Source: Escherichia coli (GTDB lineage: Bacteria > Pseudomonadota > Gammaproteobacteria > Enterobacterales > Enterobacteriaceae). From it: 63,217 bases of DNA. Every line of letters starts with the position of its first letter. Position 1 is the first letter of the stretch. The stretch lies in assembly GCF_003334255.1 (NCBI RefSeq), contig NZ_QOWU01000026.1; one strand, written 5' to 3'. Below the pieces are notes generated by a model. The model made no database searches. It was not told the DNA's origin and saw only the letters and a program-made list of their open reading frames with translations. Shown here in pieces: positions 42,149-42,732 of the stretch. The position numbers and the translations under genes are program-made.

Positions 42149-42427
42149 ATGATAAAAAGCTGGAAACACAAAGGACTTCAACGTTTCTTTGAAACAGGAA
42201 ATGCATCAGGCATAAATCCCAATCACGTTAAACGCCTGAGAACGTGCCTTCAGGTAATAGATCAAGCTGAAATCATTGATGATATTAACCTTGCCGGGTA
42301 CAGGCTGCACCAGTTGCAGGGGGACAGATCCGATACATGGTCTGTCACCGTCTCCGGTAACTGGAGAATCACATTCGAGTTTCGGAACGGCGATGCTTAT
42401 ATTCTTAACTACGAGGATTACCACTAA
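42149..42427 (+). CDS. higB: HigB-family toxin (RelE/ParE superfamily)
   Basis: ORF 42053..42427; start at MIKSWKHKGLQRFFETG...GNWRITFEF..GDAYILNYEDYH, 92 aa. Confidence 0.75.
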   Translation: MIKSWKHKGLQRFFETGNASGINPNHVKRLRTCLQVIDQAEIIDDINLAGYRLHQLQGDRSDTWSVTVSGNWRITFEFRNGDAYILNYEDYH

Positions 42428-42732
42428 TGGCGATGTTTAACCCCCCTCATCCCGGAGAAATTATTGCTGATATTCTGGAAGATCAGAATATTGGAATCAG
42501 GGAACTGGCAAGAGCGCTTGATGTCGCGCCTTCCACTGTTCAGCGACTGGTTTCAGGTAATGCGACAATATCTCCTGAAATGGCTGTTCGTCTCGCTGCT
42601 GTCCTGGGTGGAACTCCGTCTTCATGGATTCGTCTCCAGACGGCATGGAGCCTCGAAAAAGCGGAAAGAGAAGTTGACGTATCTCATCTCTCAACAAAAT
42701 ACCGCCCGGCAGAAATTTCGCCTCATGCTTAA
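42427..42732 (+). CDS. higA: HigA-family antitoxin (XRE HTH)
   Basis: 101 aa, MAMFNPPHPGEIIADILEDQNIGIRELARALDVAPSTVQRLVSGNATISPEMA...; start overlaps higB stop (TAATG). Confidence 0.75.
   Translation: MAMFNPPHPGEIIADILEDQNIGIRELARALDVAPSTVQRLVSGNATISPEMAVRLAAVLGGTPSSWIRLQTAWSLEKAEREVDVSHLSTKYRPAEISPHA

Follow-up and report, generated by a model that had tools for sequence, protein, structure and literature searches.

The window, meaning the whole 63,217-nt stretch of Escherichia coli DNA analyzed here (contig NZ_QOWU01000026.1 of RefSeq assembly GCF_003334255.1), carries a complete toxin–antitoxin (TA) gene pair, higB-higA (higBA), at positions 42149–42732. The pair is very probably a functional, canonical type II HigBA system of the plasmid Rts1 type, forming a self-contained cassette of ~690 bp that is reversed in the early-left arm of its host element, a lambdoid, Sepvirinae/Oslovirus-like prophage. 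The gene structure, the family, the catalytic and DNA-contact residues, the purifying selection, the promoter/operator geometry, and the cassette boundaries were all observed in the analysis and carry this assignment. The family, mechanism, and annotation of higBA were previously known, and in this respect the pair is one more HigBA module: RefSeq already labels it 'RelE/ParE family toxin' and 'HigA family antitoxin', and the record of phage GER2 already labels the toxin 'plasmid maintenance system killer HigB'.

Gene structure and family assignment

The two genes were delimited as follows.

42149–42427, + strand: higB, a 92-aa ribosome-dependent mRNA endonuclease toxin of the RelE superfamily, Rts1 type (by homology)
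42427–42732, + strand: higA, a 101-aa XRE-type helix-turn-helix (HTH) antitoxin and autorepressor (by homology)

The coordinates of the open reading frames (ORFs) were read from the sequence. higB runs from the ATG at 42149 to the TAA at 42425–42427, and higA from the ATG at 42427 to the TAA at 42730–42732; at the junction, CAC-TAATG-GCG, one base is common to the higB stop and the higA start. The toxin lies upstream of the antitoxin in a single operon, which is the inverted order of Rts1-type HigBA. HigB matched the Pfam model HigB-like_toxin (PF05015) over its full length (E = 1.3e-21, model positions 1–91 of 91), PHROG 3066 'toxin of TA system' (E = 1.3e-36), and the HigB chains in the PDB. 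HigA scored 88.4 bits against the NCBIfam equivalog TIGR02607 (antidote_HigA, cut-off 47.7) and contained a Pfam HTH_3 domain (E = 2.3e-9). A previous sequence-only reading of the window had proposed a 92-aa HigB-type toxin followed by a 101-aa HigA-type HTH antitoxin, on the + strand with a TAATG overlap; the sizes and families agreed with the model matches, and the order and overlap were exact to the base.

Two other assignments were rejected for HigB. Its score for the RelE/StbE subfamily (NCBIfam TIGR02385) was 17.7 bits, below the cut-off of 27.9, which places it in the same superfamily and a different subfamily. A 124-aa version starting from GTG 42053 was not retained, as both the Pfam model and the Rts1 alignment begin at Met 42149, which is preceded by an AGGA at a distance of 7 nt, and the extension would cross the promoter region.

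Conservation of functional residues

HigB aligned with the HigB of Rts1 (Proteus vulgaris) over residues 1–92 without gaps, with 54 of 92 residues identical (58.7%; phmmer against PDB 4mct_B, E = 5e-31). Mutagenesis of Rts1 HigB and the structures of HigB on the 70S ribosome have identified His54, Asp90, Tyr91, and His92 as critical, with Arg73 contributing and Asn71 shaping the adenosine pocket (PMC5027501). All six of these residues are kept at identical numbering in the window HigB. A loss of catalytic residues on alignment, which the sequence-only reading had named as the result that would speak against it, was thus not found for His54, Arg73, Asp90, Tyr91, or His92. The best match of HigA to a solved structure was E. 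coli HigA (PDB 2icp, E = 8e-28, residues 1–89). Against Rts1 HigA (4mcx_A, E = 1e-19), the alignment was gapless over residues 2–88, and Arg40, which makes the sole base-specific DNA contact in the Rts1 HigA complex, was aligned and kept.

The ratio of nonsynonymous to synonymous substitution rates (dN/dS) was calculated against the most divergent E. coli allele, that of FDAARGOS_944 (dS ~0.35). The values of 0.09 for higB and 0.11 for higA indicate that both are maintained as coding genes under purifying selection. Codon 33 of higB (42245–42247) encodes Cys in the allele shared by the window and E. coli G1/2, and Arg in GER2, in the nin-region alleles described below, and in Rts1; residue 33 is unmentioned in the Rts1 paper that was searched. 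The exact 92-aa HigB sequence was indexed in 85 blocks of the assembly collection, with the same prophage context in every contig shown, and Cys33 is therefore no private lesion.

Control region and boundaries of the cassette

The regulatory elements around the pair and the extent of the cassette are listed below.

42093–42120, + strand: putative hig promoter, read from the sequence, with −35 TTGCGC (42093–42098), a 16-nt spacer, and −10 TATAAT (42115–42120)
42092–42108, unstranded: candidate HigA operator O1, GTTGCG-N5-CACAAC, a 17-bp imperfect inverted repeat over the −35, positioned as the O1 of Rts1
42121–42137, unstranded: candidate HigA operator O2, GATTCG-N5-CGCAAC, a 17-bp imperfect inverted repeat that abuts the −10 and covers the expected +1
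42736–42761, unstranded: GC-rich hairpin just after the higA stop, without a U-tract on either strand, marking the right end of the cassette
42072–42757, + strand: higBA cassette (moron) of ~690 bp, delimited by comparison

The −10 is a perfect TATAAT and, together with everything downstream of it, is invariant in the four aligned higB-bearing loci; this part of the region includes the AGGA Shine-Dalgarno sequence (42138–42141), which precedes the higB ATG by 7 nt. O2 is a direct repeat of O1 and is invariant in four of four loci. The half-sites of O1 are likewise invariant in four independent higB-bearing loci, and its 5-nt spacer is variable. The succession of O1, 6 bp, −10, and O2 is common to the window and the hig promoter (Phig) of Rts1, with different half-site sequences, and this layout fits autoregulation through predicted binding of HigA. 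Additional HigA targets in the window were searched for with GTTGCG-N5-CRCAAC (up to two mismatches); the 19 matches, compared with 12 ± 4.3 expected, did not amount to enrichment, and a match near the start of the Bro-N gene (43570–43586) was treated as a chance occurrence.

An intrinsic terminator after higA was considered and rejected, as the GC hairpin is not followed by a U-tract, the terminator scan made no call, and the fold of a 61-nt span (−22.2 kcal/mol, z = −1.55) was not significant alone. A different GC hairpin occupies the corresponding place after higA in FDAARGOS_944. Since no clear terminator separates higA from the convergent Bro-N gene, read-through from the early leftward promoter PL would be expected to run antisense over higBA.

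The boundaries of the cassette were defined from related phages. On the left, the joint lies at 42072, where the replacement in phage PA2 begins, within the spacer of the minus-strand IsrK promoter; thus, the cassette supplies the consensus TTGACA −35 of that promoter. On the right, the joint follows the hairpin, and the block shared by the window and the nin-region loci (41453–42757) ends at 42757. In phages JLK-2012, 2851, and P27, which have no higBA, ninE or a DNA methyltransferase gene directly adjoins the IsrK promoter, and relative to these phages the cassette of FDAARGOS_944 is a 691-bp insertion. In the prophages of S19-651, 2014C-3338, and FDAARGOS_944, higBA is found between ninB/ninE and Q, within the nin region, antisense to all neighbors and adjoining an IsrK/C4-antirepressor unit. 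The cassette therefore occurs in two genome positions (PL and nin), each time with its own promoter and hairpin.

Distant HigB relatives in Mannheimia-type phages (43–59% identity) are also encoded antisense in the early-left arm, with no adjacent C4/IsrK, and C4 was absent or did not adjoin higB in all 13 distant relatives scanned (52–59% identity, Pasteurellaceae-type phage contigs). Deep conservation of the linkage between higBA and the C4-antirepressor unit was therefore rejected: no example turned up beyond the E. coli lineage, and most IsrK/C4-antirepressor units are without higBA. The tight linkage looks like the result of one insertion that was inherited and shuffled within E. coli phages. 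A plasmid origin was also rejected, as no close relative was present in PLSDB (best HigB identity, 67%).

The IsrK/C4 antisense-RNA unit adjoining higB

The 313-nt gap upstream of higB holds a minus-strand unit resembling P1 immI and Gifsy-1, composed of IsrK and C4 RNAs, which drives the ORF6N antirepressor gene. RefSeq has no annotation for this unit (41848–42085, − strand). Its elements and the two antirepressor genes that flank higBA are as follows.

42056–42085, − strand: sigma-70 promoter of the IsrK/C4-antirepressor unit (TTGACA, 18 nt, TATATT), 11 of 12 consensus positions matched
41971–42049, − strand: IsrK-like leader small RNA (sRNA), Rfam RF01394, 68.9 bits (gathering score 50)
42062–42009, − strand: C4 a1/b1 targets, RF03163, 44.5 bits, just below the gathering score of 46.7, overlapping the IsrK leader
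41992–41976, − strand: terminator-like hairpin in the IsrK leader (consensus scan)
41860–41945, − strand: C4-type antisense RNA, Rfam RF01695, 67.5 bits (gathering score 45)
41128–41805, − strand: ORF6N-domain antirepressor gene, left flank (PF10543, E = 1.7e-19; PHROG 1760 'anti-repressor', E = 1.6e-122)
42775–43557, − strand: Bro-N-domain antirepressor gene, right flank, convergent with higA (PF02498, E = 2.3e-15; PHROGs 1726 and 130 'anti-repressor')

Transcription from the IsrK promoter is predicted to start at ~42049, the position aligned with the first nucleotide of the IsrK model. Two copies identified by a repeat search, at 42016–42026 and 41848–41858, are complementary to the loop of the C4 RNA, GUUCCUAA. 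In an alignment of the window (41800–42160) with PA2 (L003, 4875–5250), the loci L004 (3721–4081) and L005 (3698–4058), and FDAARGOS_944 (L006, 3722–4082), the loop and both target copies covaried across the five loci, giving four variants (TTCCTAA, TTCCAA, ACGCCAA, and TTCGAA). Covariation of this kind is characteristic of functional antisense specificities, as seen for P1/P7 immI, and the variants resemble separate antisense 'immunity' specificities within a group of closely related E. coli prophages, comparable to those of P1 and P7.

The IsrK and hig promoters stand back to back, with 7 bp between their −35 hexamers. The ORF6N gene starts at 41805, as in RefSeq, with an alternative ATG upstream at 41835. 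Minus-strand antirepressor genes had been predicted on both sides of the pair, and both are present. The placement of the pair antisense within a leftward early operon was supported, with one refinement: the antisense position was confirmed, and the left antirepressor has its own promoter and IsrK/C4 leader in the gap and is not simply part of a continuous PL transcript. It is thus a separate, RNA-controlled unit, and higBA sits at a divergent-promoter junction.

Prophage setting

Host genes in the window (emrKY and dsdAXC) are followed by tRNA-Arg(CCT) at 37754–37828, at which the lambdoid prophage is integrated. Its genes begin with those for the integrase, an AlpA-like HTH protein, DUF1627, DUF1382, an MT-A70 methylase, and a hypothetical protein, and continue with the ORF6N antirepressor, higBA, the Bro-N antirepressor, exo/RecT/Gam, Rha, the CI-like repressor, and Cro. 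In the annotation of the identical G1/2 prophage, all genes across ~39.2–52.6 kb (~13 kb) are leftward, except higBA and an IS150 transposase that is absent from the window; with the latter set aside, higBA is the lone + strand unit of the block, as the antisense placement had implied.

Over 41900–42900, the window had 100% identity with the chromosomes of three strains from the feces of healthy people, E. coli G1/2, G6/7, and G8, and 99.8% identity with phage GER2 (Sepvirinae, Oslovirus). The element was also found in E. coli strains named UCPROB. Strains G1/2, G6/7, and G8 are presumably components of the probiotic Symbioflor 2; if so, the stability of the prophage in them could matter in practice.

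Several other features were observed in the window. The MT-A70 methyltransferase gene (40023–40649) is intact, and it is interrupted by IS150 in E. coli G1/2 (L001, 8678–10750) and by another insertion sequence (IS) in PA2 (1810–3749); the different elements mark it as a repeated insertion target. A match to sRNA-Xcc1 (RF02221) at 50665–50753 (− strand) falls within the annotated Rha gene, at its 5' end, and overlaps the start of its coding sequence, and in L004 two such matches (2280–2369 and 3195–3278) are found upstream of antirepressor genes, one BRO and one ORF6N. These matches suggest structured RNA leaders for other genes of the antirepressor type. A second, unrelated TA locus in the rightward arm of the prophage was indicated by the Rfam sok antitoxin of the hok/sok type I system (58719–58893, + strand, 118 bits). 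An STnc100 sRNA was matched near the right end of the window (62696–62912, + strand, 149 bits).

Loss of the toxin and orphan HigA in Stx2a phages

In 5426 complete E. coli genomes, higB with its promoter was found in 22 and higA in 68. Within the phage collection, higB was found in one E. coli phage record (GER2) and in five Mannheimia phage records at 57.6% identity. In PA2-type phages encoding Shiga toxin 2a (Stx2a), window positions 42072–42404, comprising the hig promoter and nearly all of higB, have given way to a 717-bp segment that codes for a ParD-family antitoxin (TIGR02606) and contains a lipoprotein-like ORF of 65 aa. The final 23 nt of higB persist in front of an intact higA, whose product differs from the window HigA at 1 of 101 residues (N5T). 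Within the replacement (5168–5884 of PA2), the 85-aa ParD is followed by a 7-codon ORF, MAYEVPH*, which overlaps the parD stop and which we guess to be a truncated parE, and then by the 65-aa ORF; PA2 is thus left with a tandem pair of orphan antitoxins. 'Two orphan type II antitoxins (ParD, HigA)' were noted in such phages in a 2025 paper, in which their relevance was called unclear (PMC12502783).

As the window holds the complete pair, the orphan HigA of the Stx phages reads as decayed higBA. The complete form implies, in line with the genome counts and the higB remnant in PA2, that the toxin was probably lost before the antitoxin. This direction of loss is expected of a toxic addiction module, because the cell survives the loss of the toxin and not that of the antitoxin alone. 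For the orphan HigA/ParD antitoxins of Stx2a phages in clinical enterohemorrhagic E. coli, the window higBA would provide the toxin partner that is missing and indicate in which direction the decay went. If the orphan HigA neutralizes the window HigB, Stx phages would carry immunity to the addiction or exclusion module of a rival phage.

Proposed mechanism and alternative explanations

Toxicity, neutralization, operator binding, HigA lability, and the trigger are carried over from the Rts1 system. In the lysogen, Phig would yield a single higB-higA mRNA, on which the TAATG overlap would couple the translation of both genes. A HigA dimer would bind and neutralize HigB, and HigA would repress its own operon through the two operators, one over the −35 and one over the −10/+1. 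Once HigA synthesis stops, the unstable antitoxin would decay; this could be triggered when the prophage or cassette is lost, when an incoming phage shuts off the host, or when transcription from PL reads through antisense at induction. Free HigB would then enter the ribosomal A site and cleave mRNA at A-rich codons, halting translation, with His54 acting as the base, Arg73 stabilizing the transition state, and Tyr91, Asp90, and His92 acting on the leaving group. The host would thereby become addicted to the prophage or cassette, and phage infection might be aborted as well. The prophage-stabilizing and phage-exclusion roles that the sequence-only reading had suggested are both plausible and are not mutually exclusive. 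With a promoter that stands back to back with that of an antirepressor under antisense-RNA control, and with genes convergent with PL transcription, higBA is a compact natural case in which prophage induction might switch on a TA module.

Several observations weigh against a functional Rts1-type module. The frequent loss of higB shows that the toxin is dispensable for the phage, and Cys33 of the window HigB stands against Arg in all other alleles compared and in Rts1. The −35 of the hig promoter is weak, matching the consensus at 3 of 6 positions, for which reason the consensus promoter scan made no call, and the hairpin 3' of higA is statistically unexceptional and without a U-tract. No PADLOC-DB 2.0 defense model matched HigB, and HigA gave only weak generic HTH matches (E of at least 3e-4). 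The literature search found no experimental work on this higBA allele.

The frequent loss of higB and the Arg-to-Cys change would both be accounted for if the pair were an inactive relic with an attenuated toxin (e.g., by R33C), kept by linkage alone. We consider this highly improbable, as both ORFs are intact with the catalytic residues kept, dN/dS is ~0.1, the exact HigB sequence recurs in the same prophage context as described above, and the −10, the operator half-sites, and the Shine-Dalgarno sequence are invariant. A less remote, though still rather unlikely, explanation retains the proposed mechanism and takes anti-phage defense (abortive infection or superinfection exclusion), and not addiction, as the main selected role: infection would shut down host transcription or set off the loss of HigA, and HigB would halt translation before the incoming phage finishes its cycle. 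A reversed cassette with its own promoter could be expressed while the prophage is repressed, in the manner of morons, and Mannheimia phages carry HigBA in an equivalent antisense early-left position. There is also the precedent of a HigBA-based unit acting against lambda, although this unit works with a SecB-like chaperone as a sensor (bioRxiv 10.1101/2024.02.24.581848), and no chaperone or sensor gene adjoins higBA here. The PADLOC result and the absence of the toxin from most relatives also argue against a primary role in defense.

The closeness of the two promoters suggests another alternative, in which higBA is wired to the IsrK/C4 switch, with HigA or HigB-HigA at O1, or cleavage of the leader by HigB, tuning the antirepressor and with TA activation feeding induction. 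The geometry is in its favor (O1 is 6 bp from the IsrK −35, which the cassette itself provides), as is the adjoining of higBA and the IsrK/C4-antirepressor unit in all E. coli loci examined, at both the PL and nin positions. However, most such units, including those of JLK-2012, 2851, and P27, have no higBA, and PA2 retains the IsrK/C4 unit without the hig operators. The spacing between the IsrK −35 and O1 differs by 1 nt between loci, the operator motif is unenriched elsewhere in the window, and the arrangement in distant relatives points to a single inherited insertion. Wiring of this kind is therefore unlikely. It appears very unlikely that higBA is part of the lysis–lysogeny circuitry, with the occupancy of O1 by HigA/HigBA, or the action of HigB on the IsrK/C4 leader RNA, setting antirepressor expression and thereby induction. 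If this were the case, the orphan HigA of Stx2a phages would have been kept either as a regulator or to counter addiction by rival phages that carry HigB. A functional Rts1-type HigBA cassette remains our preferred explanation.

Comparison with known systems

The closest known system is HigBA of plasmid Rts1 (PDB 4MCT/4MCX; HigB on the 70S ribosome, 4YPB/4ZSN; HigA on DNA, 6CF1/6CHV), with which the window pair shares the toxin-first order, a 92-aa toxin ending in DYH, the TAATG junction, and a promoter layout with one operator (a candidate in the window) over the −35 and another after the −10. They differ in the carrier, which is a conjugative IncT plasmid for Rts1 and a prophage for the window, in the operator half-sites (TATTRCACA/TGTAATA in Rts1 and GTTGCG/CRCAAC in the window), and in the length of HigA (104 and 101 aa, respectively). 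The HigA of E. coli CFT073 (PDB 2ICP/2ICT) is the closest solved antitoxin structure, but it is a chromosomal allele and was compared by the antitoxin alone.

HigBAC of E. coli NT1F31 is likewise a HigBA-type unit, with a demonstrated anti-phage function (bioRxiv 10.1101/2024.02.24.581848). It requires the SecB-like chaperone HigC as a phage sensor, whereas the window has no such gene; membership of the window pair in this type was rejected, as there is no third + strand gene and the convergent Bro-N gene follows higA after 42 nt. In phage vB_MhS_535AP2 of Mannheimia haemolytica and its relatives, the toxin is 57.6% identical and the pair lies antisense to the early-left genes, downstream of a CI-like repressor, with an annotated divergent promoter and bidirectional terminator. 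Unlike in the window, higB and higA are split by a short gap without overlap, and no IsrK/C4-antirepressor unit is adjacent.

The neighboring ORF6N unit, as distinct from higBA, resembles P1/P7 immI (c4-icd-ant) and the isrK-orf45-anrP arrangement of Gifsy-1 (PMC4825925) in its succession of promoter, a1/b1 leader, terminator, C4-type RNA, second target, and antirepressor. The gene upstream of isrK is antQ in Gifsy-1 and ninE or a DNA methyltransferase gene in JLK-2012, 2851, and P27, whereas the window has the divergent higBA cassette in this place. In PA2, VT2phi_272, and phi346/phi349, the orphan HigA (PMC12502783) occupies the same slot between the ORF6N gene and the next antirepressor gene. 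In PA2-type phages, the IsrK/C4 unit and both flanks are homologous to those of the window; higB has been replaced there, leaving an orphan higA, whereas the window carries the complete pair.

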